From: Psilocybe cubensis
Taxonomy: Eukaryota
DNA length: 64,000 nt
Assembly: GCA_017499595.2 (NCBI GenBank)
Contig: CM039007.1
Span: 868,001 to 932,000 of the forward strand
Reading direction: 5' to 3'
Made by a program: the position numbers and the translations under genes. The notes under the pieces were generated by a model that saw nothing but the letters and a program-made list of their open reading frames with translations, was not told the origin of the DNA and did not search any database. Shown here in pieces: positions 1-53,500 of this stretch; the first letter of the stretch is position 1; each line of letters starts with the position of its first letter.

Positions 1-1237
1 CTAATCTATCGTGTAAGTGCCTCGTTAAGCTTTTGTAATCATGTGAATAGAACGGGGATTCGTTAAACATCAACTCTCCCTCTAATACATACATTACTGC
101 TACTATATTTTCGCTGGCCCACCCTTACGGAAGACCCACCATCCTATCAAGCTTCTCCTTTTCAACAACAGACGATGGAGCTCCTAATGGAGGTACTACC
201 ATCTCCGAGCTTCTTCAAATTGGTCATGAACTGATGATTCGAGTCCATAGGATCGGGGACATGTAGTGCAACAGGAGGCTCTGCAGGATGGCTCTGCCAA
301 CACCGTTTCGTCGCAATAAGCGGTATGGTAGGGTTCCGCAACAATGTCGGAACAGCAGCTCTTACCAATTGGGTTTCTCCTCAATCTGAGCAAATCGCCT
401 TTGGACGGGGTATGTATTTCCGTCTTGATTTTCCCAGGAGCCTCTTTGCTCATCGAGAATTCAGGTGCTCTTGGATTCGTAGCAATTAATAATGCAGATT
501 CCACATGGAGCTCCACCTTCACTACGTCTTTGCCTGATGGATCTTACTGCGATGTGATTAGTGGAAAGTCATCTTCAGGACTGTGTACTGGCACTGGGTA
601 TGCATGAGAATCTTTCATTTCACCCTATGAATTTCAATTTCTTACTATGATACCCACCTCTGTAGGATAACTGTCTCGGGTGGGGCATTCACTGCCACAG
701 TACCCGCACGCAGTGCTATTGCCATTCACACCGGTGCACTCGGTGCAGGCTCAGTTGCGACCGTTCCGACACCATCTGGAAGTGTTGCCGTATTATTCCA
801 GGAAACTGCAACCACAACGTTTGGACAGGTGTGCAGCATATCTATCTTTAGGGGATGAGCTAATCGGTTACTTTCGAAGAATATTTTTCTTGTTGGGAGC
901 ATTTCCCAACTTGGGTCATGGGCGCCTGCTTCGGCTGTGAGCGCATGTCATTTCAATCGTTTTACAGGTTTCTAAGGGAGTTCCTTGCTTTAAGATTGCT
1001 CTTTCTTCAGCGTCGTATCCAGTGTGGACTGTGACGGTATCTCTACCTGCAGGAACAACCTTCCAGTATAAATTTATCAGAAAGAATACTGATGGAAGTG
1101 TAAGTGATTCTAAAATATAACAAAGATTTAAACGTTTATACGTCGACCGACCACAGATCACCTGGGAATCAGATCCAAATCGCCAAGCAACTGTTGGAAA
1201 CTCGGGAACGACGACGCTAACGACATCTTGGAGATGA
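1..1237 (+). CDS. Alpha-amylase (GH13) with C-terminal CBM20 starch-binding domain; 5' end outside window, multi-exon
   Basis: Spliced translation gives ...[15 protein letters not shown]...GWLCQHR...VGFRN...QIAFGRG...GFVAINN...[12 protein letters not shown], then CBM20 ([23 protein letters not shown]...[23 protein letters not shown]...ITWESDPNR). TGA at 1235-1237. Confidence 0.93.
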
Positions 1238-16711: not shown

Positions 16712-19203
16712 CTACTTACGAGACACGAGATAATTGATTTTTCGGGGCGGCCACATTCTGCTTTGGTTGTTTGTCATTGCTGTGGGAGAAATCAAGATGT
16801 CAGAATCTCCTGGTTCGGCAATGCCATGCCTGAAGAAAGAAGAATATTAGAAGGGATTTCGAAATGGATGCATCAGACTTACTCCTTCCATACGTGTTCA
16901 TTAAGAGTAGCACCGCACTCTTCCTTTCTGCAATGGGCACAAACCATCGAAATATTGTTTGCGTACATGCGACCGTTATCGCTGTCTATGCACCTTCTTG
17001 CTACAATCTCATCTTCCCCAGTAAGCAATTCATAGTTGCACACGGACCCCAATCCGGGGAGTAATTGTCGATCATGTGCAATGCGATGTTCATCCTAAAA
17101 GTGAATCCCCCCGAATCAGACCAGCGAAATTGTCAAGTGATGGCTACACCTACCAGAATATTCCACCTTAAAACACAGCGTCCCTTAATGAGACTGTTGC
17201 AAGATACACATTCGAATATCGGATCAGCTGCATCCATCTCCTCAGAGGTAGTCACGGCCGGATCAAATCCAAACTGCTCGAGAATGTCCGCCATGGCTCG
17301 CATGCGATCTTTGTTGAAATATATACCGTTTTCGTCGTTCCAAATCGTGCTCCTGGTATGATGTGAAAGTGATCGACGTTCCAACTCGTCCAGTGCCTTT
17401 TCAGCACTAATATATGGTTCATATGGAATACCATGATAATGGGCCAGGACATTAGGATACCGCAAGTGGTCGCTACGGCACGTTTTGCATGAGAAGATAG
17501 TTGTTGCCAGTCGAAGCACGCTGCTTTCGTCAAAATTATATGTAGTGCCACAGGCTGATTTGATCAGGCTTATAAGCTTCCCTTCCATCTGGGTCCGCCA
17601 CTCATGGGAAATTTGTGCGTAATTGACACGCAGGGGATCGAGGTGCGCCGAAGTGAAAGGTTCTAATGATGTGTCGTCTATTAGGTCTCGCACCAGCTGT
17701 ACCTTAAACAAATCCGCTGCAGAGGGAGTCGGAGTGTACAGCGAATACTGCGCTGCACATTCTTTGGCGACTTTGGATAATATTGGCAGCCGATTTTCCA
17801 GAAACACCCTGCGATCGGCTTGCAGTCTTAACACGCGGGACTCGCTCATCAATACATTGAGGTCCGGACCCATGGAAATCAATACTTGTTTAAGCATAAA
17901 TTAGTACTTTCAAAGCAGTTTGTTAGGCATTGCGCACCTGTATCAGTCAATTCATTGCAGCATGCATCATAAATTTGAGGTATATCAAAAAGATCTTCGT
18001 AACCGTCTTCGCTCATAAGAGAGAGCTCGGGTTCCCATCCTAGTGATTTTAAGTGGGCGACAAGCCTGTCAATTATTCCAAAGGTGTTAGTGTCCTGGTG
18101 TATGGGTGTAGAAGATCTTCTCACCTTGATTGACGACGAAGAAACAAGTTATCCTCTCTTTCGTTTTCGTCCCATGTCTTGTAGATGGCAGCATGCTTAA
18201 CGAGTTATACCTTAGCTCAAGGGTCTCTGACAAAAATATCAGGCTTACCGTTTCTATGTTGTTCAATTCTTTAATTTTGTCAGTCATCCAACTTGCCGGG
18301 TTTACTGACAAGGAACATTCTCTCTTCCACTTTTTTCCAGTTTCAAGTAAGTAGTACGACCTGTAGGCTGGGTACCGTAAGTTGTATGCACTGAACAGGA
18401 CTCAACACGGCTTACAATGGTCCTTGTACGGCAAGAGAACTCTGGGAAGGTATGGTATCAACTCCATGGGGCATGTCATCTGTACCTGCGCATCTGTTGA
18501 TAATTGCCCACGGATCATCACGAATCTAGTCATATCAAATAAGGATACAGATTCAGGAAAAACTTCAATCATATACGCGCCTGTATTGTATACACGGCAC
18601 ACAAGCTCGAACTCTTGCCGCAAAAACGGTGATCGGTGCTCTGTTGTCTGCGCCAACGAACCTTCCGCAGTACTGTAGAACAGGTCATTAGACAGAAAGA
18701 TGGAAATTAAACGCTAAGGAATACCCACTTGACACTTCTTACCAAATGCCAAATTCGTATACTGGATGTCCGTTAAATCTGGTGGACAGTCTGGCATCCC
18801 AATAAGCTCCCTGGAGGCTTTCCACAGAGTCGGCGCCACGTCTGAGCTCTTCAGAATATGTCGAAAATGTATTGAAGTGCACGATAGGTGCCATAAATCT
18901 TTCGGCTCTAAATCTGTGCAGATCTGATAGAGCAGGCAAACATAAGAGGTGTATAGCGCGGCTACGGGAAGAATTTCTGACCTCAAATGCCAATATTTCT
19001 ACGGGGAGCCCACCCAGAGAATTCGCGGAGTATACAGAGGTCTCGTTCAACTCATTTGCTGGCGTTCTCATTTTCTTCGGTTCTCTTCCTTCATTCAAGA
19101 CGTCAACATTGGTGTCCTGACTAGATCGCGACCGCTTTACGGTCGCGTCTCTATTAGTAGTTGATGATGAAGAGTTGTCGACGGTAGAATGGAGTTCAGG
19201 CAT
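16712..19203 (-). CDS. F-box protein of an Agaricomycete-expanded family (copy 1)
   Basis: LGGLPVEILAFE|ICTDLEPKDLWHLSCTSIHFRHIL (F-box), PDCPPDLTDIQYTNLAFG, Cys/His clusters; collinear with the paralogue at 31910-34447. Confidence 0.85.
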
Positions 19204-19394: not shown

Positions 19395-19601
19395 TTACGA
19401 ATAGAAGTTTCTGACCTCAAATACCAATATTGCTTTGGAAAGTCCGCACAGAGAGTTCTTCTCTAGAGAGGCATTGCTTGCAACCCCGTTCAACCTTTTT
19501 GTTGGCTTCCCCTTTTTCTTCGGTGGGTTCTCTGCATTCAAGTCATCTACATTGGTGCGACGATGTTGAAGAGTTCTAATAGTAGGTCGGTGTGATCCCA
19601 A
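19395..19601 (-). pseudogene. 5' fragment of an F-box gene (exon 1 plus start of intron 1)
   Basis: TNVDDLNAENPPKKKGKPTKRLNGVA...NSLCGLSKAILVFE|gtcaga matches exon 1 of the intact F-box genes; no downstream exons follow. Confidence 0.75.
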
Positions 19602-39706: not shown

Positions 39707-40041
39707 GATGAACTAGGTATGAATTGAGAGCAATGAGCATAGAAAGACCACATTATGCATATATCAGGTTGGTCAAGAAACAGAATAAAGGCGCACAACA
39801 GCAACCTTTTTAGAACGATTCAACGACTCCATTTGTACCTTGTGGTTTGCAAGAAACGATAATCTCTCCCTTTCGTCTCCATTTTTTTGTTATTTCCCGT
39901 TTCGGGAATCTGTGTCTTCACGACGACGAGCAACACATGCCCACCACCCAACATGATCACCAAATTGCCAGAAGCGTCAAAAGAACATGGCATTACTAGA
40001 GCGGAGGACATTAAAAACTGTAAAATAGGTACAAAACCAAC

Positions 40042-40801
40042 TCAAAAATCAATTCTACCGCTGTTCAAAGTTCGTATCAAGCTCTGCCTCCAAGTTAAAC
40101 GCAGAGGAATGTCATCCGGGTTCGAAGATGGCAACAACACTGGCGGTCGTTTGAAGGAGACGGGCTCATAATATTTGATAGAGTTCGTCTCCAAGACTAC
40201 CATGAAACCGCCAATATTGCCTACCCGTTCATTCATCTTTGCAACCTCTACCAGGTACTTCCGAAAATGCTCGCACTGGCTTTGACCAAAGTGTTCGATG
40301 GTTTCTGGTGAATCCAGCGACATGATCTTTGCATCTGTTACTCGAAAAGCCGTCTCAGGGCGTGTGGACGCCGGGTTTGGTACAACTTGAATGACGAGCA
40401 TTTCTCGGAGGTTTCGAGTGGTAGGCCGATCAAGGGTAATGCAAAAGGCGCCAAGTGTGCAGGACGCTATCGTGTCCTTGTGCAACTTGTAGAACTCGAG
40501 GAGAGATTGTGATTCCTTGAGCTGGGCCTTTTCCTCCTTTTTGGACATGGCATTTGGCCGAGGACCGCAATGCTTTTTGTGATCTTTCCAGGCCGAAGCT
40601 TGACATTCCCGGTTCTGTTATAGGAAATATATTCAGCTCGCACTTTGATCGCCGCTGGGTATAGACGATAGGGACACGTACGCAGTAGAATACATTTTTA
40701 CATCCACTACATTTGAGAAGTGGTTCCCCGTCAGCGTTTGAACCAATTCTCATACAGGCAGGGTTATGGCACAGAGGGGTGAGCTTTGGCTTGGTGGGCA
40801 T
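40042..40801 (-). CDS. MYND-type zinc finger protein
   Basis: CHNPAC...LLKCSGCKNVFYC|NRECQASAWKDHKKHC followed by a ~170-aa C-terminal domain. Confidence 0.88.
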
Positions 40802-40854
40802 AGTTTTTAGTCGAGAGTGGTAGTGGACTGCGAAAGGATATCGAAAGTTCGATG

Positions 40855-40951
40855 ATTGTGTCCTATTTATCTGCACAGAAATTCTCATGATTCGTTACTT
40901 CTATTGTGTCCTTATTTATCTTCATAGAAATTCTCGTGATTCGGTACTTCT
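40855..40951. repeat. Two-copy ~48-bp tandem duplication in the MYND gene promoter
   Basis: ATTGTGTCCTATTTATCTGCACAGAAATTCTCATGATTCGTTACTTCT followed by a close variant. Confidence 0.8.
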
Positions 40952-41413
40952 GTACCTAAATCGGCAGGCGATGTTCTTCATCTGAAAGAAAGGATTCTTC
41001 ATGGGTCAAGAATACAAAGGGGAATAAGGTCATTGTTTATTTAGCGGTGTATAATTTATTAGAAACATATTTCCAAGGTCTGATGCAAGCAGAAAGTCCC
41101 GTCCGCAAACTGTAAGGTTCGCCGAACCTTGAAGCTTGAACGTCGAACCGCGAACCGCGAGCCTTGAGGCGCAAACATTGATTATTGAACAGCGAACAGC
41201 GAACCACAAACTTGTTTGTAAAGAACCAAAGAAAGCAGCACAATTTTATAGTTTACCTTTTGTTCTGTTCATTCTCGGGCGCTCTTGCCATTTATTGTTA
41301 TTTCTCCGCAGTTCTACTGCAGCTTTACTCCTTGTTTCATAGTTCTTATTATGGATGTACAGTAATAGTGCACGCATACAAAATGTGTGCTTTCGTTCTC
41401 TTCGAACCTCAGT

Positions 41414-42757
41414 ATGGCTGCCCAAGTGGGGAAATATTCCCCGTAAACTTATTTAGGTATTTTTCTTACTGCGTGAATTTGTAAAAAAAAAGTTGGAGCG
41501 CGGAAACATTTTTTGAGTGCGCAGATTGTTTTCTAGCTTAGCCGTAAATATATTTGATTGCGCGGAAACATATTTTGGACATATTTTGCTAGCGCACGTA
41601 AATTTTTACTGCCCTCAATTATATTTAATGCATAAATCCTATGCGCGTAAAAACATTTTAAGCCCCAAACAATATTTCGATGCGCGGAAAACATTGTTCA
41701 ATTGCACTATTTCTAGCCTAAAGTGACCAGCCGTTATGCCGAGATCATGTAAAATGATCTAAAATGGCACCTCGGCACACTAAAACGAGTTCAAGCTCCG
41801 ATAGTTCTACCGCTATTCTATTTATTAGGACAATATAACAATTTCTATAGTACTTTCTATGTAATATTAGCCCATTTCCAGTGGCTTTGTGGTGTCCCCA
41901 TTAGCAGTGCAGCTTGTGCACCATTTCAGACATCTCTAGCATTGTGTGAAAACCCCATCAACCGTGGGAAAGGCATCAATCAGTGCATTCTTGAGCGCAT
42001 CTGTGCATTGGTAGAGTCGGAAATGGGAAAATAGTATTAAAAAAGCATGGTGAGATATGTATTACATAGAAATCTATGAGAATAAGTCAAAATATCATTC
42101 ACAACTACTGTTCACAAAAGCAAAATATCAGCAACGGCCGTCACAATTGCGCATCAGTGGCTGTGCAAGAAAGCGACACTTCACGTTCAAGGCGATTTCA
42201 AGGCAATTATCTCACATTCTTTGATTAAAGCAACATTAATACATTTCAAAAGAGTATATATTATATATAGTAATCAATTTGTAATTAAATGAATGTGGGT
42301 TAGCATTGCATTACAGAATCCTCGATATTTTCTTCAAAAATCCAAAAGGTGGAGCTTGAATTCGTTTCACTGTGCCGAGGTGCCATTTTAGATCATTTTA
42401 CATAATCTCGGCATAACGGCTGGTCACTTTAGGCTAGAAATAGTGCAGTTGAACAATGTTTTCCGCGCATCGAAAGATTTGTTTGCGGCATAAAATGTAT
42501 CTACGCGCATAGTGTTTATGCATTAAATATAATTGAGGGCAGTAGAAATTTATGTGCGCTAGCAAAATATGTCCAAAATATGTTTCTGCGCAGTCAAATA
42601 TGTTTCTGCGCGGTCAAATATATTTACGGCTAAGCTAGAAAACAATCTGCGCACTCAAAAAATGTTTCCGTGCTCCAACTTTTTTTTTACAAATTCACGC
42701 AGTAAGAAAAATACCTAAATAAGTTTACGGGGAATATTTCCCCACTTGGGCAGCCAT
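41414..42757. mobile_element. Foldback-type non-autonomous element with ~390-bp TIRs
   Basis: 41414-41799 is the reverse complement of 42351-42757. Flanked by ACCTCAGT at 41406-41413 and 42758-42765. ~550-bp non-coding spacer; repeated GCGCGGAAACA motifs in the arms. Confidence 0.92.
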
Positions 42758-42852
42758 ACCTCAGTCGTTCTGCTCGAACAACGACTGAGCTCGCTACCAG
42801 TTTTCTTACATTTATTTCAAACAGAGAAAGAAAAAATCCTCGATGTCGAAAA

Positions 42853-45782
42853 CTACTCCAACGCTTCGACATCCTCCTCGTCGTTCCTACCCATATCCAG
42901 TTTGCGCTTTTGTCCAGGCATGGCCTTTCCACCGCCATAGCCAACACTAGCTTTCTTCCTGAGCACCTCGATGTCCTGCTCTGCCTCCTCGGCCCACTCC
43001 AGAACCAAATGTCGTCCAAGGAAATGGGTATGACGAAGCGTATTGTACGCATTCTCAGCTTCATGCCGTGACACAAACTCGAGGAATGCAAAGCCGCGTG
43101 AGCGCGAGTCGAATTTCTTCGGAAGGCGCACAGATTTGAGATGACCATGAGCACTAGAAAAGGAATTGAGTCTAGCAAAAATGAATAATAATGAAAAGAA
43201 ACGCACCCAAACAGATCCCGCATGTCCTTCTTCGTCGCCTCGAATGGCACATTCTTCACAATCATCTTCGTCGTCCTGCTCTTCCCTGCATCGACCTTGC
43301 CTTTCTTTTCAGCCTCGGCCTCTTCCGCACCTCTACCAGCGAAGGAGACATACAGCGCATGACCATCTAGCACAAACCCTTGTACACTCTTAAGAGCCTT
43401 CTTGGCGCTCTCGGGATCCTTGAAGCCCAAGAACCCATATCCCATGCTGAGACGCCCATCCGGCCGCTTGGGATCCGGCTTTGTCTGCACCCGCGCAAAG
43501 GAGAACGAAGGCAGATGTGAAAACACCTTTGCGAGCCGTTCCTGCGTCGTGGAGAATGCCAAGTTCTTGACGTACAACGTTGACCCGCCTGCGATCGACG
43601 GTTCTTCCACATCGTCCGTATCGTCTGCTGCTCCCACTTGTTCCGGAATGCGCACGGCGTGTGCAGCTGTTGTCGTAGGTGCCGATGCTGTGCCTTTGGT
43701 AGGTGGCACGAATCCCTCTATGAACATCCCTAGCGGGCCTTTCTCGAGATACACCACCGAGTTCCCGAGCCGTCTATACGCAACCGCCCTGAATGCTTTC
43801 GCTGCCTCATCCGGTTTCTCAAAGTCCACCACGGCCATCGTCCCAGCAGGAGGAATCAGCACGCGGGCAAGTTCGCCATGAGGCTCAAACATCTCTCTAA
43901 TCTGCTCTTCAGACGTCCCGTAAGGAATGTTCTTGACCAGGATCGTCGTATCTGAGCGTGCTTTAGAACTGAATGCAGATAGCAATACACCTTGAGACTC
44001 GAGGTACGACTTCGTTTCCTGGATGATATGTGTCTCGGCGAGAGCCAGCTTTACAGCGGCATTATCCCCACTTTCTGGATTCAAGATCTCCGATTTATCG
44101 ATATTCATTCGTGCAGCGATTGAAGAGGCAACAGCATCGCTCTAGAGAAAAAAGAAACGGAAGAAAATAAATTTTATTGGAATGTGTTACAAATAATGTA
44201 TAGGCTAGAAAGCTACGTACATTCATGTACAACATGCTCCAGTTAAACTCCTGTCCTGCCATCGCCTTCCTCTTCTGGTTCTTCTCTTCCTTTAAACTCT
44301 TTTTATGACCTTCACCCTCTTGTACCTCTGGCTTCCCCTTCCTATCAACAGCTGCAAGGATGTGGAGCAGACGCCCCTGGAACGATCTCTTGTCCAGAGC
44401 CTCGTAGGCGGCTAGGGCATCAGTGGGTTTAGCGAAAGTGACATAAGCGAGTCCTTTATGTTGCTTCGTAGTTGGGTCGCGAGGAGTGTGTATCTAAAGA
44501 AAGATAGAATATGATTAGAAATGTCGTTGAAGAATAATCATAATCATCAAAAAAAAATCAGAAATATTTCTACTATCGGTTTTCCCAAAGGATCAACATG
44601 CCCGAAGGTCTGATGTCCCTATTTGGTTTATGCATCTTGGAAAGCAAAAAGAATGGATAAGAATGTTTACCTAGAAGGAAAATAATGAGTTAGCGAGCGA
44701 GTTCGATGCATAAAAGTAGAAGAGAATAGGAAAGGATCAGAATAAATTTCTACTATCGGTATTCCACAAGGATCAACATTCCCGAAGGTCTGATGTCCCT
44801 ATTTATGTGTCATCTTGTCGAAATTGCGTACGCAAAAGGAGGACGAACAGAAAGAAACCGAGTCTCACCTGAGATATTTGTCCAAAGGGTTCGAATAGCT
44901 CTCTAAGCTCTTCGTCAGTACATGAAAATGCCAAGTTACGGACAAAAAGTCGCGCTGTCTGGAGAATAGTTTCTTTAGTTGGGTCAACGGGTTTAGAAGC
45001 ATCGGCGGTCGCAGGTTGAGTGCCCTGCTTCGAAATGGAAATAAAATTAGACAAAAACCTTGACAGAGAAACAACTCATGCGAACACTTACCTTTTGAGA
45101 TTCGGTTGCATTGACAGGCTTTCCCCCATCCTCTTCGTCTTGTTCAAAGACTCTCTCCTCAACAACTTCGTCGACGACAGCAGCAGACATTCTCTGGCGC
45201 ATCCACTCTACATCTGAAATGGCACCTTGAGCCTCGGTATCTTCGGGGGCAGGTACAACTGAAGGCGTAGGCTCAGCTGGCATAATCGGGACAGGAGTAG
45301 CGGCTTCATTCGCCCATGCAGGCCCTTTCTTCTTCTCCATGAGTTTCATGAATTCCTCACGGTTCTTGTCGCTCTTCATAGGTGACTTCTGGTCTTTTGT
45401 GACTGACGATGGAGTAGTGGAATCAGAGTGTGATGTTGAGGGGTCCAGGCGCTGTCGTTTCCGGGGTCTAGGAGCATCTGCTGCACCCTGTTGGATATTG
45501 AGTAACTAGAAAACATAGAAAGAGTAAAAGGCGCACCTCAGAAAAGCTAACATTAATTCTCGTTGAATCAATAAACGTCCTGTCGAACCATTTCTGCGCC
45601 TTCTGTGCTTCTGCCTCCGACTTGAATCCAACGAATCCAAAACGTCTTGACGTGCCATCTGACTTTGACGAGACTTTTACATCGGTGAGGGTCCCGCCTG
45701 GGCCTCCCTTCTGCTCAAAGTGCTCCCGGAGTCTCGCTGGCGTCACATACACCGGCAAATTTTTGATAATGAGGCGAGACAT
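42853..45782 (-). CDS. MRD1: Multiple RNA-binding domain protein 1 (RBM19 orthologue), 5 RRMs, ribosome biogenesis
   Basis: MSRLIIKNLP...RRFGFVGFK; RLFVRNLAF; FNWSMLYMNSDAV; ILVKNIPYG; LYVKNLAF..SMGYGFLGF; KMIVKNVPFEA..RGFAFLEF..THFLGRHLVLEWA. Confidence 0.96.
44555..44641 (-). ncRNA. Intronic box C/D snoRNA, snR64/SNORD74-like (copy 2, degenerate C box)
   Basis: C box AAGAUGC, guide AUAGGGACA-U, D' CAGA, CCUUCGGG loop, C' AUGUUGA, GAUAGUAGA element, D box CUGA (44558-44561). Guide is complementary to the conserved LSU rRNA stretch UGUCCCUAU (rRNA recalled, not searched). Confidence 0.75.
44734..44820 (-). ncRNA. Intronic box C/D snoRNA, snR64/SNORD74-like (copy 1)
   Basis: C box AAGAUGA (44810-44816), guide AUAGGGACA-U, D' CAGA, UUCG loop, C' AUGUUGA, D box CUGA (44737-44740); same strand as host MRD1. 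Confidence 0.82.
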
Positions 45783-46000
45783 CGAAACAGACGTCTTTAA
45801 TGGCGATTAGCTTACGGAAATAACCAAACAGGAGGGGAACAGCAAAATACGGACCTGGAAGATTTGTTCAGAAGAAAAAATGCACGGAATTTATACGCTT
45901 GACCCTATTTTAGACTCCGATCGGGTATCGCCGTCTGCCCACGCGCGTGCTATCAATCGTCCTGAATCAGCTGCACACCACCTCAGTCTCGGCGAGTTCA
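45783..46000. promoter_or_regulatory. Compact bidirectional promoter region between MRD1 and prefoldin 3
   Basis: Head-to-head ATGs only 218 bp apart. Confidence 0.6.
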
Positions 46001-46916
46001 ATGGCTACCGCGAAACCTAAAACAGTGTTCTCCGACGAGAAAAATCCTAGAGGAATTCCAAAAGCGCCCTTTATTGTGAGGATGTTCAATCTATAACCCA
46101 TGTTTGTAACTTCTGATTAAAAAACCTACAAAACAGGCAGATGTCGAAGAATACATAGGCAGTCCTGACGCCAGCATCGAGTCAACAATGAAAGTCTTCC
46201 AAGATGCACTGGCGTACGCGTTTTCTCGAACTATGTTACTTTATCACCTCAATGAAACATGATTTCCTTCTGGAAGCTCAGCAAGTACCGATTCATGGAC
46301 TCCAGCCTAACCCAGCGACGCGCGAGCCTTGAGCAGAAAATCCCGGATATTCGCAAGACGTTGGACATGGTTGAATATCTCCAAGAACGAAGAGTATGTA
46401 TATATTTTAATTCGTGATATTGATTGTTGATGACGATCAACTATCGTTCCAGGAGGGCAAAAGTAAAGCCAAAGACGACGAGGACGACCTAGACGATCTT
46501 GATGATGAAGAAGAGGGAGATGCTACGAAACCTCTTACCACGACATTCGAGCTGAACGACACGTTATACGCTGAAGCTGAGCTCGAAGATACAGATACTG
46601 TATATCTATGGCTTGGGGTGCGTCGCTTTTCCACAGCACATTGCGCATTTCGATCTCATATCAAATAAACTTTTAGGCCAACGTCATGCTGTCCTACAAA
46701 ATTCCAGCAGCCATCACTCTATTAAAGTCCAAACTAGACGCTGCACAGACAAGTCTGGACAACACAATCGAAGACCTCGAATTTCTACGAGAGCAACTCA
46801 CGATCATGGAAGTCAATACCGCGCGCCTTTACAACTGGGACGTCAAACGCAGACGGGAGAAGCGCGAAAGGGAACAAAAAGCTGTAACTGCAACTTCCAC
46901 TGTAGTCACAAAATAA
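46001..46916 (+). CDS. PAC10: Prefoldin subunit 3 (VBP1/Gim2)
   Basis: NPRGIPKAPFI, KYRFM, KIPDIRKTL, TTFELNDTLYAEAEL..VYLWLGANVMLSY, DLEFLREQLTIMEVNTARLYNWDV. Confidence 0.95.
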
Positions 46917-47519
46917 GATCGGGAGGCTTTACATACTCCAATGTAAAATATCGCCGTTTCTCGGCCTATTTATCATTATACTCTTCCTGCTCCTATGTTT
47001 CATCACGCGGTTGAATCCAAGCTCAGAAGGATACTTGCAGTTAGAGAGCTCATACTGAATGAAATCCCGGGCGATACAAATCCCTACACAATACCGGTGA
47101 AAAAAATTGTCCGGAGAGCTTTTATACCCCTTTCAATGTGCCTTCATGTTCTGCAAACTTCGCTCTCAAAAGTTCAGTCACGTTGCAAAGCTTACACACC
47201 GCCCAAGACATAGCGGCTGCTTATTGGTCGTTACTAGGCCATTACCTACATGCCATGACCGCTTCGATTCACCCAGTCACTTTTCTGACAAACGGTGCGA
47301 AAGTTCCTGATCCGACGTGAGGGGATGGGCCAAGATAGAAGCCAATCCGGATGCACCAATCCACGCCTCGCCTAACCCAAATGAAGATTCCAGAATCCGT
47401 ATGTAAAATCCAATGTGCCTATTTTCGTTCACGAGGAGCTGGTGGGGTATATAACATCTAATCACCCTTCCAGTTCCGCTTTGCCCCTCTCTAGAAGCCC
47501 ACCCTTTCACTGACCTGAC

Positions 47520-50034
47520 ATGACGACCCTCGACGATACAACCTCCAAGACAAGGGGTAACGCCTCTGACGACATCCATGATGAAAAATCCCCAATCGAT
47601 ATGGCAGAAAAAGATTCACATACGACGTACAGCTCTACTGAGAATTTGTACCAAGACGACGCTTTGGAGCCAGTGTATTACGCCAAAACGTTGATTCTGA
47701 ACCGGGCAATTGAAGAGATTGGGATGGGCAAATATCAGGTGCGTTCAGGTTTGAATCAAATGTTGAGGACGTTTGAAAGCTAATTCTCATCCTTGTCTTC
47801 AAGTACATGCTATTCCTCGTATCGGGCTTCGGATGGTTTGCGTAAGAATTCACCTAACATACCCTTGCAAACATGGACTCAATTGACAATCGTTGTTTCG
47901 TGCAACAGCGATAGCGTATGGCCGGTATGTCGTCCGACCTCAATCCGACTATTTACACAGTGACTCACACGATCTTTATTTTCATGCCTATCTCAACACA
48001 ATTTTTATAGCTAATAACAGGCCTGATCTTGACACCCGTAGTCGACGAGTTCGGATTCAATCCCCCATTCCTCAGTCTTGCGGTAAACGCAGGCCTTCTT
48101 GTGGGGGCTGTATTCTGGGGCCTAGGTTGCGACGTTTGGGGAAGACGGTTCGTGCTCGCTCTATCCATCTTCCAGACCCGGAAATGACACGTCTCTCTCG
48201 GACAATTTCACTTGCATGCCACGTATTTTTCCATATCTACAGATGGTGCTTCAACATTACATTGTTTCTTGCTGGTGTATTCGGTCTAGCCGCAGGAGGC
48301 GCGTCGAATTTTATCACCTTGGCGTCTTTGCTCGCCGTCATGGGCGTAGGAGTTGGAGGTAAATTTTTGTATCGCACCTCACATATTCACATCAAGCCCA
48401 ATATCGCAAATTTGACTTACAGGTAATCTACCTATAGATTCAGCGGTCTTTTTAGGTCAGTAATTCGCAACCCTACGGTAATCACGGTAAAAAATGACGA
48501 CTTCGTTAACCTTTGTCGAACCAGACTTCGTTCCTGCATCCCGCCAATTCCTCCTCACATTCATGTCCATATTCTGGTGCCTCGGACAACTCGTCGTCAA
48601 CCTTGTAAGATCTAACCTCGTATTCTCTAATATATTGCACCCATAGCCTTTTCTCTCCTAGCTCGCCTGGCCACTCATAGCAAACTTTTCTTGCCCCGTG
48701 GCAACGCCGACATCTCCACCATGTACCCGTTCAGCCAACATGGGCTGGCGCTATTTGCTTTTCACCCTCGGTGGGCTCACCCTCCTCCTCTGGGCCATCC
48801 GTTTTTTCGTCTTCGAGCTCGCTGAAAGTCCACGGTACCTCATCGGCAAAGGACGTGATGCGGAGGCAGTGATGATCATACACAAGATAGCTGCGTATAA
48901 CGGCACAACGAGCACATTGACCGTCGACCAACTTGCGGCTGTCGGTGGCGGGGAGTTCTCCGACAAACAACAGGAAACGAAGGCTGAAGGTAAAAAGTTG
49001 TCGTTGACCCGCACTTCCGACTTTACTCTGGGACATATCAAATCTCTATTCCGGACGAGGAAAATTGCTTATTCTACATCTCTGTTGATATCCGTATGGG
49101 GTGCGTCTGGTGTTCTTTGATATTTGATGTTCTATAACCAGCTTTGACTAATGCATTTGCAGGTATAATTGGCCTTGCTTCGACTTTGTACAACAATTTC
49201 CTATCTTTCCTGTAAGTACTCACTCTTCTTGAAATCCTCTGGGTGTATGGTTACTTACTAACTGAATAAATGACAGATTGAACAGCAAAGGGGCACATTT
49301 CGACGATGCAACCCTCAACATCACTTATCGCAACGTACGTGCTCCCTGAATGAGTGCCAGGCGAATATTTACTTACGGATAATTGTATCAATTATGCATA
49401 GTCCTTCATTTTGAGTGTCGTAGGTATCCCCGCTGCGTTCTTCGCCACATGGCTCGTCGAGATCCCCCAACTGGGACGACGAGGTGCCTTGGCCGTATCC
49501 GCAGGTAACTCACAATCCACTACCCCATCCATGTATCCATGAAGATTAAATAACTCCTCATAAGCTCTTACTGGTGCCTTCCTCTTCGCCACCACCACTG
49601 CACGAACCTCGAACGCACTTTTGGGGTGGAACTGTGGTTACTCATTCTTCAGCAACGTAAGTCCCATCCACACTTTACCGTATCCCACGAAGCTTAAATA
49701 TTCCCCCCTTGCCGTCTTGAAACTGACAGGTTATGTACGGTATTCTGTATGCCATCTCCCCCGAGATCTTCCCTGGCAAAGATCGAGGCACAGGCAACGG
49801 TTTGACAGCAGCAGCGACCAGAGTGTTCGGGCTCATCGTACGTGATAGTTTTCTAGAACAAGCTCGACAAATTCTAAACACACTTCAAATCTTTCATACC
49901 AGGCACCCATCATTGCATTGTACGCCGATATTACAACATCCGTCCCTGTGTACATCGCAGGAGCTTTGATCATCTTCTCTGGATCTCTGGCTCTATTGAT
50001 CCCATACGAACCTCGGGGCAAAGCCGCCATGTAA
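47520..50034 (+). CDS. MFS transporter (SV2/sugar-transporter-like)
   Basis: AIEEIGMGKYQ..LFLVSGFGWF, GAVFWGLGCDVWGRR, GVGGNLPID, MGWRYLLFTLG, ESPRYL, PEIFPGKDRGTGNG. Confidence 0.92.
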
Positions 50035-50577: not shown

Positions 50578-53500
50578 TCAAGCTATACCTCCATCCCAAC
50601 TCGCCCTCTTTCTCTTATTGTCGCTGCGAAGCATGAGGTCCTGTGGACAGACAGCGCTCTGGCTCTGGCCCCTATGATGGCTCATTGATCTCCCAAGAGT
50701 CCCATTTCCCGAGCGCTGTGGTTGCTTACGACTCCTAATAGTCCCGTCCTTGTTCGAACCCCTTCCACCATCCTCGGCACCACCGTGCCCATCAACAGTC
50801 GCACCTACGATCCCCAACTCGCTGAGCTCCCCGTTTACAGTCGACACCGTCTGAGAAGGCGCCACGAACCGTGCAGGGATCGGCGTTTTCTCCCTACCCA
50901 TACCGCGCTGCCTGATCGTTCCCACAGGGGAGGGGTTGAACCCTCTCAGCGACGCGCCCAGGTTCATATTGAAGCTTCCAAAGCCGGCACCGTTAGCACC
51001 GAACAGAGACGACGAGGACGACACAGCCGTTTGAGCCAGATCTAATGCTAGACCCTGCCTTGCCTCTGAGTAATCCTCTAGCGTCACATCCAGCCCACCG
51101 CCTAAGCCATGGTGGTTGTTCAGCGCACCGTACTGAGAATGATGATGGCCCGGGGCATGCGTGTAATCCGTGTGCAGATCTAGGAATGATAAGTTATATG
51201 GGAAGACATTCCGCCATATTTCGTTATTGAGGTTCTGTTCGTTCATATTCATATGGACGGAGTGGCCAATGCCAATGCCATGTCCTTGATGAGCAGCGGC
51301 GGCGGATGCGGAATTTGATGATGGAGAAAGAATTGACGGGGACGATGGCGAAAGGAGGTTGTTCGTATACACAGAACCCGTAGCCTGTTGTTGCTGTTGC
51401 TGTTGTTGATGATGTTGTTGCTGTTGCTGATGATGTTGCTGCTGCTGCTGCTGCTGTTGTTGTTGTTGTTGAATCTGCTGCTGAACACTACCATTTTGCT
51501 GCTGACGCAGAACCGGCGACATGGGCGGCTGCATCGAACCAGTGCTATTAGCCAACCTCATCGGCTCCGACGCCTTATGCCTCTGTTGCGCGATAAGTCC
51601 ATGCCCATGGCCGTTGCCACTGACAGGAGACGACAGATGCGGGTTGAAAAACGCGTGCAGTGTCCGTGCAGACTCGGCCAACTGTTGTTGCTGCAGATCA
51701 ACGGGGGCGTGCATACTGTGCAGGCCGACATCATCCATCGACATCGGTATTCCGCCGCCGAGGAACACGTTTCGCGCCTCAGAGGGTGGGACGGAGATGG
51801 ATCTTGCGTGATGTCCACCACCACCACCACCGCCTCCTGTAAGTGGGCTATCGAAACTGTGCATCATCGTCCCAGAGGCCCGCCTCATCGGCCGCGGCTG
51901 CGTCAACACGGGTGTAGCTGGCGGTGTTGCATGGAGCTCATTCATATCCACAAGATCATCCAACCCAAACGAATCCGAGCTGAGCGAGTTGTCCAAATCA
52001 ACCGAATTAGCTTCCTCCTCTTCCTGGAGACTTCTCATCTGCTGCTGCTGCTGAAGTTGTGCCTTTTCCGGTGAATGCGGGATCCCAAACGCCATCTCCA
52101 TCATAACAGCGTCCTGCTCGTCATCGTTATTCCCAGTCCCTGCACCTCCGACCCCATCTCGCCTCCCATCATCCATCGCATCGCCCCCATTTCCAGACGC
52201 AGTCGACGCACCGGAGCTCGAATCCACACGGTCGTTCAACGAAATACCCGTCAGCCCAAGCTCATCAATCGCCGCCAAACTCGTCGAGTGCGAATGCCCG
52301 TGCCCATGTCCATGTCCATGCAACTGCATCGGATGAATACCCTCCAGCCCCAACCCCGAAATCTCCCCATTCTGTCCCGCACCCCCAAAACCAGCCCCGG
52401 CACCCCCATACGCTGCCCCGGACGAGAGCGACAGCGGGAGAAACGCGGCGGCGAACGACGACGGCTGCTGGTGCATACGCGCGCCGCCCGAGATGAGGTC
52501 GCCCGCAATCTGCGAATGGTACCCCTTCGACGTGCCGCTCGCACCGCCCAGGCCCAGCCCGAGCCCAAACTCGCCCGAAAACGTCGTGTGCGTGTCGCCG
52601 TGCCCCACCTCCGACGAGTTGCTGTCGGGCATGTACGGTGGGAAGAGGTCGTACCGGTCGAGCACGTCGTGGTTCAGATGCGGGTGGAAGGAGAACGGCG
52701 AGGCGGGCGAGAAGCTCGAGGCGTCGATGTACGACGATGACGAGGCGCTGCTGCTTGCGTTCCCGCCGTTTCCGCTGTCCAGCCGCGGATTAGGCGAGAA
52801 CCAGTCGTTGGTGCCCCAAGCGCTTTTCCCGATCATGTTGCCCATGTTGTGCGAGCCGGGAATGTCAGTACGTCTATGGATGAAAGGTGACGAGGCACTT
52901 GATGCACTGTTGCTCGTGGCATTGCCGGTCAAGAAAAAGTCTGAGACGTGGCTAGAAGTCGGTGACGCAGCAGCTGTCGACCATGCAGCTGTAGACGAAT
53001 GTGTTGGAGTGTTGAGTCCAGACGACCAGGTCTCCATGTCGGAATGTGTATGATTCGGGAGGAAGTCGGGGATGTTCAGTGGGTCCGTATCGACGAGCAC
53101 AAGATCCATGTCCTCATCCTCAGGTCCATCATTGTATTCCGTCGGTTGGGAAACAGGAGCCGACGTAGTAGTTGATGGGGCAGTTGTATTTGAAGAAGCA
53201 GACCCCGAAGTCGAAATCACCGGCGCACTGACAGACGTAGTACCCTTCACGGGTCTTTTCATCTTCGACCCCGCCCTAAAATCATGATTCCCATCCACAA
53301 ACACTGGCAACGGTGGAGTCTTGAACACCCTTCGCGAGCTCTCGCTCTCCTCCTCTCCTCCCGAACTGTCCTCATCCTCCGAACACGCCGTGCTCTGTGG
53401 GACACTCTTCGTACCGCCTCTCAGGAGCCCCTGACTCGTATGCGCCCTCCGCCGACTCCTCACCGGTCCAGCAGTCGCTAGCTGATCATCCGCCGCCCTC

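Follow-up and report, generated by a model that had tools for sequence, protein, structure and literature searches.

How can two small nucleolar RNAs (snoRNAs) be released from one interval of a coding gene while the protein stays unchanged? The question is raised by the gene MRD1 on the minus strand of a 64,000-nucleotide (nt) stretch of Psilocybe cubensis DNA (assembly GCA_017499595.2, contig CM039007.1, positions 868,001 to 932,000), referred to below as the window and used for all coordinates. The second RNA recognition motif of MRD1, RRM2, is interrupted by a phase-0 intron of 375 nt (44868 to 44494) in which two copies of a box C/D snoRNA are found, and between these copies the end of an apparently complete 3' splice site touches the beginning of a 5' splice site. 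We consider it probable that the interval consists of two complete spliceosomal introns of 198 and 177 nt, which abut without an exon and each carry one snR64-type snoRNA. With equally good confidence, based on the comparison of relatives, the internal site is taken to be a working splice junction.

The host gene is the orthologue of MRD1/RBM19, a nucleolar protein with multiple RRM domains. Its spliced model translates into 769 amino acids, and a public protein with exactly this sequence bears the name ‘Multiple RNA-binding domain-containing protein 1 [Psilocybe cubensis]’. The Pfam domain RRM_1 was found on four of the exons and the best specific PDB matches of the product were RRM domains of RBM19. 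Exon 3 ends with the letters ATATCTCAG, the last base at 44869 and the final CAG at 44871-44869, and exon 4 starts with ATACAC from 44493. Contigs of two sequencing runs of one study (X1 and X2), which are not on record as RNA but were taken as RNA by their behaviour, with four MRD1 introns joined, connect 44869 to 44493, and the skipped sequence has GT..AG ends on the minus strand. The whole 375-nt interval is removed from the messenger RNA (mRNA). The initial annotation had proposed that the RRM2 exons join in phase 0 across an intron of this length, which is borne out by both the sequence and the contig join. The other MRD1 introns measure only 49-79 nt.

Between the snoRNA copies the minus strand reads GCTAAC, then TCATTATTTTCCTTC, then TAG|GTAAAC (44673-44665), with the internal AG at 44672-44671 and the adjoining GT at 44670-44669. 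A complete 3' splice site, composed of branch point, pyrimidine tract and YAG, abuts a GT donor here, the arrangement of a zero-length exon, and it is present exactly as had been described. The interval itself ends in TTTAG, final base 44494, and one branch point and one snoRNA were seen in each half, again as predicted. Joining of exon 3 to the internal site would give CAG|GTAAAC, which fits the donors of this gene from −3 to +4 and continues with A at +5 and C at +6. When the 114-nt spacer between the copies was shuffled 1000 times with preservation of dinucleotides, any AGGT appeared in 3.1% of the shuffles, and a YAG|GT accompanied by both a branch-point motif and a pyrimidine tract arose in only 0.6%.

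Relatives of the locus were collected by scanning metagenome contigs with a pattern that combined the snoRNA guide and D' box with the GATAGTAGAAA element. Of the 38 loci obtained, every one encodes an MRD1 orthologue, with segments about 37-87% identical to the window protein by tblastn, and every one has the snoRNA in this phase-0 intron, downstream of ..ISQ. Two or three snoRNA copies are present in 34 of the 39 loci, the window counted. A single copy was found in two complete introns (L013, 179 nt, and L012, 224 nt), and in three loci one copy is followed by the end of the contig (L011, L031 and L032, of which L031 appears to run into the exon). Each of the 37 inter-copy spacers in the 34 multi-copy loci, window included, holds exactly one YAG|GTR. 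Relatives with two copies and no internal AG|GT, which the initial annotation had named as evidence that would count against it, were not among them.

As near-duplicates are frequent among the loci, the set was dereplicated: introns were clustered by shared 12-mers into 23 groups, and 20 of the representatives were multi-copy, with 21 spacers. Clustering of the spacers by identity chained and was uninformative, and the number of lineages is claimed no further than these 23 clusters. All 21 dereplicated spacers contain a single AGGT, always as YAG|GT, and each has a CTRAY-like motif ([CT]T[AG]A[CT]) 13-24 nt upstream of the AG, measured to its G, as well as a pyrimidine-rich run. From 1000 dinucleotide shuffles of each spacer, 2.94 of the 21 would be expected to contain any AGGT and 0.38 the full set of signals. 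With the signals taken out, the spacers have a median identity of 0.47 (210 pairs) versus 0.41 for shuffled partners, and the snoRNA copies one of 0.84. The leaders and trailers outside the spacers (3425 nt) contain eight AGGT, four within donor hexamers, two at true exon borders and two at borders of units that carry no snoRNA. The internal junction is conserved in all spacers and the remaining spacer is near random, which argues that it is under selection as a splice junction.

The architecture of the units is common to every multi-copy relative. In the window, the distance from the end of the D box to the unit's own AG is 66 nt in unit 1 and 64 nt in unit 2; among the relatives the medians are 61 nt for internal and 57 nt for terminal units. 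From donor to next guide the median is 46 nt in internal units and 75 nt in the first unit (n = 21; L006 omitted, L005 without 5' end). The branch-point pattern fits 21 of 21 internal sites and only 13 of 20 terminal ones, a count that omits L005, L008 and L031 with their incomplete or snoRNA-less last units. The internal donors (n = 21) have G at +1, T at +2 and a purine at +3 without exception, A at +4 in 17 and G at +5 in 11.

Three loci, L017, L018 and L026, have an MRD1 intron of about 595-598 nt (572-1169, plus strand, in L026) with three snoRNA copies and two YAG|GT junctions, CAG|GTAAGA and CAG|GTGAAA. The guide of their first copy is altered (ATGGGGACAT), and their external donor GTGAAT is the sole one of 22 without G at +5. 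The snoRNA intron of L031 (minus strand) has the donor CAG|GCAAGT and is thus a GC-AG intron, unique among the 22 donors.

The two direct copies in the window are 93% identical over 59 nt and lie 180 nt apart, with diverged flanks (Table 1). In both, the order of elements is C box (AAGATGA or AAGATGC), guide, D' box (CAGA), a C'-like ATGTTGA, GATAGTAGA and D box (CTGA). A search of the whole 64-kb window against Rfam gave no match at gathering level anywhere, the window being without ribosomal RNA (rRNA), and a search of 40000-50000 gave no match at E ≤ 1. Alignments with snR64 (RF00509, clan CL00069) and Tetrahymena TtnuCD23 came only from an Rfam search restricted to 401 nt; they cover the full model length of both copies and are sub-threshold, at 20.1 and 16.6 bits against a gathering score of 38 for snR64, and at 24.2 and 23.3 bits against one of 70 for TtnuCD23. 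Common to the copies and to these alignments are the D' guide AUAGGGACA, the D' box CAGA and the element UAGUAGA. Save for one unpaired base, guide plus CAGA equal the Rfam RF00509 consensus, and the guide is kept in all 75 copies of the 39 loci, where the search pattern permitted two variable bases at its first positions. Both copies are accordingly filed, by guide and not by score, as putative snR64-type box C/D snoRNAs.

The C box of copy 2 ends in C in place of A (AAGATGC). This variant is probably tolerated, since L013, a relative with one copy, has it in that copy. A perfect TGATGA at 44540-44550, about 10 nt past the D box of copy 2, stands in an AT-rich stretch and may be due to chance.

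Table 1. Features of the MRD1 locus in window coordinates; use of the internal splice signals is a prediction.
Feature	Position	Strand	Remarks
MRD1 gene	45782-45537, 45487-45092, 45027-44869, 44493-44221, 44141-43207, 43153 to stop near 42856	minus	six exons
MRD1 exon 3, N-terminal part of RRM2	44869..45027	minus	RRM_1 positions 1-26; ends ..GQISQ
External 5' splice site GTGAGA	44863..44868	minus	sequence and RNA contig join, skipped ends GT..AG
Intron unit 1, 198 nt	44671..44868	minus	GTGAGA donor, snoRNA copy 1, branch point, pyrimidine tract, TAG
snoRNA copy 1 (box C/D)	44737..44816	minus	snR64 16.6 bits, TtnuCD23 23.3 bits, below gathering scores
Parts of copy 1	C box AAGATGA 44816-44810; D' guide ATAGGGACAT 44802-44793; D' box CAGA 44792-44789; D box CTGA 44740-44737	minus	also contains the GATAGTAGA element
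Internal branch-point motif CTAAC (within GCTAAC)	44689..44693	minus	branch A 19 nt before G of internal AG
Internal pyrimidine tract and 3' splice site ..TCATTATTTTCCTTCTAG	44671..44688	minus	
Internal 5' splice site GTAAAC abutting AG (zero-length exon)	44665..44670	minus	
Intron unit 2, 177 nt	44494..44670	minus	GTAAAC donor, snoRNA copy 2, branch point CTAAT, TTTAG
snoRNA copy 2 (box C/D)	44558..44638	minus	snR64 20.1 bits, TtnuCD23 24.2 bits, below gathering scores
Parts of copy 2	C box AAGATGC 44638-44632; D' box CAGA 44612-44609; D box CTGA 44561-44558	minus	
Terminal branch-point motif CTAAT	44514..44518	minus	21 nt before G of terminal AG
MRD1 exon 4, C-terminal part of RRM2	44221..44493	minus	RRM_1 positions 30-70; starts IHTPRDP

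From the conservation described above we infer the following route, including its two steps, their order and the release of the snoRNAs from separate lariats. The donor of exon 3 at 44868 would pair with the first branch point, A44690, and the AG at 44671. Exon 3 would then be joined to G44670, by which a donor is rebuilt as CAG|GUAAAC, and this donor would pair with the second branch point, A44515, and the AG at 44494 to give the in-frame join 44869-44493. The reverse order of the two steps would produce an identical mRNA; removal of the upstream unit first is our guess as the more likely course, since this unit is the earlier to be transcribed and its branch point is the better of the two. 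In yeast, trimming of debranched lariats by exonucleases is established. Here, two lariats would be debranched and trimmed to the RNA protected in the small nucleolar ribonucleoprotein (snoRNP), so that each transcript would yield two snoRNAs with no endonuclease cut and with the protein unchanged. The boundary would have to be of zero length because a coding gene must keep its reading frame. The units themselves would have arisen through duplication of a whole GT..AG intron.

Several observations weigh against a working internal junction. Removal of the 375 nt in one step gives the same mRNA, so mRNA data are blind to the route; no molecule using the internal site was seen, and the support for its use is comparative throughout. 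The relatives are metagenome contigs that share ancestry and are not independent, a kinship which the shuffle statistics ignore. G is present at +5 in all five ordinary MRD1 introns of the window and is missing from the internal donor GTAAAC, as is T at +6; this donor is weak, among the weakest of the internal donors. As a class, too, internal donors are weaker than external ones, of which 21 of 22 in the relatives have G at +5. The X1 and X2 contigs themselves contain neither the join 44869 to 44670 nor 44671 to 44493, which is evidence for neither side as contigs drop rare forms, and the intron with its snoRNAs is covered by no RNA contig, which is equally neutral as contigs drop short RNAs.

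The weak donor and the contigs, which show only the full 375-nt skip though they cannot reveal rare intermediates, would also suit a single 375-nt intron removed in one step, with the AG|GT as an unused relic of duplication and with the snoRNAs either separated by an endonuclease or matured one per transcript. We regard this as improbable. A relic would decay, yet every one of the 37 spacers has kept its single YAG|GTR, and the branch point and pyrimidine tract persist in all 21 dereplicated spacers amid sequence that is near random. Nor does the window spacer offer a hairpin to an RNase III-type enzyme: it folds into no stable structure (minimum free energy −1.6 kcal/mol, z +1.16; 187 of 200 shuffles fold at least as well), and a cut of this type between the copies is therefore not suggested. 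It is very improbable that the internal branch point and 3' splice site merely recruit splicing factors for assembly of the upstream snoRNP, with no catalysis at the site. The upstream copy and the internal branch point are indeed spaced as the downstream copy and the terminal branch point are, and a paper on Neurospora crassa reports that the distance to the 3' splice site is important when intronic snoRNAs are processed (PMC2780460); recruitment leaves unexplained, though, why GT and a purine at +3 follow the AG in 21 of 21 spacers.

Two-step splicing could also be real and have been selected for efficiency and not for snoRNA release, if intron-defined recognition handles some 375-600 nt better as pieces of about 180 nt. 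The shortness of the other MRD1 introns agrees with this, as does the retention of AG|GT borders around units without a snoRNA (the third of L005 and the first of L006); in Cryptococcus neoformans, moreover, BOT1 is described as recursively spliced and the available excerpt of the report mentions no snoRNA (10.1101/224170). We nevertheless find efficiency an unlikely sole purpose. The junction is fixed relative to the snoRNAs at the median distances given above for the 21 spacers, there is one junction per pair of copies and never one inside a copy, and the single-copy introns of 179-224 nt have no internal site. Splicing efficiency and snoRNA release are not exclusive purposes.

That the snoRNA intron was duplicated in tandem, as the initial annotation held, is supported by relatives with one, two or three units and by units that have no snoRNA and are still bounded by AG|GT. 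In 13 of the 20 multi-copy representatives the upstream loop starts with CAGA-CT.. and the downstream one with CAGA-CC or CAGA-AC. Two copies of the second type (CAGA-CC/AC) are present in the window, L001, L030 and L006, and two of the first (CAGA-CT) in L008, L015 and L035. The copies are too short for a firm tree, and we infer from the loop-type split shared by the 13 representatives an old duplication with a kept boundary, followed in some lineages by conversion or re-duplication.

Units also appear to have been lost or reshaped. In L005 (about 7212-7094, minus strand) a third unit of about 119 nt is bounded by AG|GT and retains only a remnant of the C box, and in L006 (about 6877-6712, minus strand) the first unit, 166 nt and likewise bounded, has no recognisable snoRNA; either the splice borders outlived the snoRNA or these units have another origin. 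The single copy of L012 (274-497, plus strand, 224 nt) has a doubled GATAGTAGA element, with CCGATAGTAGAAA twice in tandem, and flanks resembling those of the two-copy L003. It looks as if two units had been fused by a deletion that took the internal junction with it.

The upstream exon ends in ..CAG and the next exon starts with GT (GTN) in 13 of 21 representatives. The ancestral intron was thus probably flanked by AGGT on both sides, which would offer a route to exact duplication of the unit. It is possible, though we advance it tentatively, that snoRNA introns behave as duplicable cassettes in a coding gene, unequal exchange at AGGT adding or removing GT..AG units whose borders are kept since each snoRNP needs its own branch point and lariat. 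If true, this would account for the one, two or three abutting introns at a single phase-0 site across Agaricomycetes, provide a present-day case of introns gained by tandem duplication at AGGT, and make this the first recursive splice site of a fungal coding gene whose conservation has been found to extend over many species.

Ratchet points, as recursive splice sites of animals, have a strong consensus donor. In long introns of Drosophila and vertebrates they are described as juxtaposed acceptor and donor, the donor being rebuilt after the first step (10.1101/006163, PMC8605326). Those introns are reported to span tens of kilobases, in contrast to the MRD1 units of about 180 nt with internal donors weaker than the external ones. 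The initial annotation's statement that recursive AG|GT sites are mainly described in very long animal introns is out of date for fungi, as cases are described in Schizosaccharomyces pombe, Candida, Debaryomyces and Cryptococcus neoformans.

In S. pombe, the snoRNA61 host SPNCRNA.445 is described with a 336-nt intron that is removed in full and in which a 3' splice site abuts a 5' splice site; these sites are reported as conserved in the genus and their use as shown by spliceosome profiling (10.1101/226894). SPNCRNA.445 is a non-coding host in an ascomycete, whereas MRD1 is an agaricomycete coding gene, interrupted inside RRM2, for which use of the site is deduced; unlike SPNCRNA.445, its units carry paralogous copies of one snoRNA. 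The clusters snR57-55-61 and snR41-70-51 of the Candida clade and Debaryomyces are described with one snoRNA per intron and zero-length exons (PMC5033589), and such fungal clusters lie, according to the account of Luo et al., in hosts that do not code for protein (PMC3596301). Exons there may be of any size (0, 1 or more nt) and the snoRNAs belong to different families; all 37 spacers of MRD1, where the frame has to be preserved, have a boundary of exactly zero.

Closest in form is BOT1 of C. neoformans, where a 375-nt intron of a coding gene is reported to be split into 210 and 165 nt at a zero-nucleotide exon, with recursive splicing shown by profiling of junctions, branches and 3' ends (10.1101/224170). 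BOT1 and MRD1 are alike in being protein-coding genes of basidiomycetes with a 375-nt intron in two parts; they differ in that BOT1 was profiled and, in the excerpt mentioned above, is not linked with a snoRNA, whereas MRD1 offers conservation evidence and a snoRNA in each half. Stwintrons of filamentous ascomycetes are complex intervening sequences described as removed by consecutive splicing (PMC8469720, PMC9024468, PMC6616335), in which a splice signal of an outer intron is broken up by an inner one. A stwintron reading of the MRD1 interval was rejected: donor, branch point and acceptor are present and uninterrupted in both units, and the two complete introns lie side by side, neither nested in the other.

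As for the snoRNA, CD36 of N. crassa, whose listed homologues are snR64 and U74, is described as intron-encoded, its D'-box guide being directed at a C of the 26S rRNA; the same source gives one snoRNA per intron as usual and processing as dependent on the distance to the 3' splice site (PMC2780460). The MRD1 copies share guide and UAGUAGA with the snR64/U74/CD36 family and differ by their sub-threshold scores and by the presence of two or three paralogous copies in one gene. The initial annotation knew of no such arrangement in a mushroom, and the literature, in titles and abstract beginnings without supplements, yielded no description of it in a mushroom or in MRD1; likewise no paper combining MRD1 and snR64 was found. 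The kind of arrangement is already known in fungi, and supplementary tables of the spliceosome-profiling papers may name further recursive sites. New are a coding host whose frame forces the boundary to be exactly zero, the occurrence in mushroom-forming fungi (Agaricomycetes), units with paralogous copies of one snoRNA, and conservation documented over dozens of loci with one to three units.

The locus puts the fungal rule of ‘one snoRNA per intron’ to a clean test in nature: every surviving lineage examined has kept a zero-length complete splice junction between the duplicated copies. Gene models with one long intron at this place would conceal two or three splicing events, and other snoRNA hosts in mushroom genomes may hide the same. 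With units of about 180 nt and two snoRNA copies that can be distinguished by sequence, it is a compact system for recursive splicing and for snoRNP assembly coupled to splicing. At one and the same site, the 39 loci record how whole intron units are gained, fuse and decay.

Strain differences were seen in contigs of X4 and X5, which behave like DNA. Those listed inside the snoRNA intron are 44658 T>A (both) and 44854 G>T (X4). As the table of differences leaves 57 unlisted, counts per intron are lower bounds: at least two in the 375-nt intron (44658, 44854) and at least seven in the 79-nt intron 4 (44220-44142), a contrast that is not firm. A contig of X1 joins 44138 to 44221 with three letters between, which is due to the strain variant 44139 G>A (plus strand), also present in X4 and X5.

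Just downstream of the MRD1 stop, the segment 42600-42821 looks like a dispersed repeat: its summed word depth in X4 and X5 is 839-2025, versus about 21 across the rest of the gene, and loose ends are numerous at 42724 and 42758-42765. Elsewhere in the window, the CTG/TTG triplets (plus strand; CAG/CAA on the minus strand) that follow one another at 51379-51496 are probably a coding glutamine-rich repeat, and a 51-nt direct repeat, 80% identical, occurs at 18974-19024 and 19408-19458, 434 nt apart.

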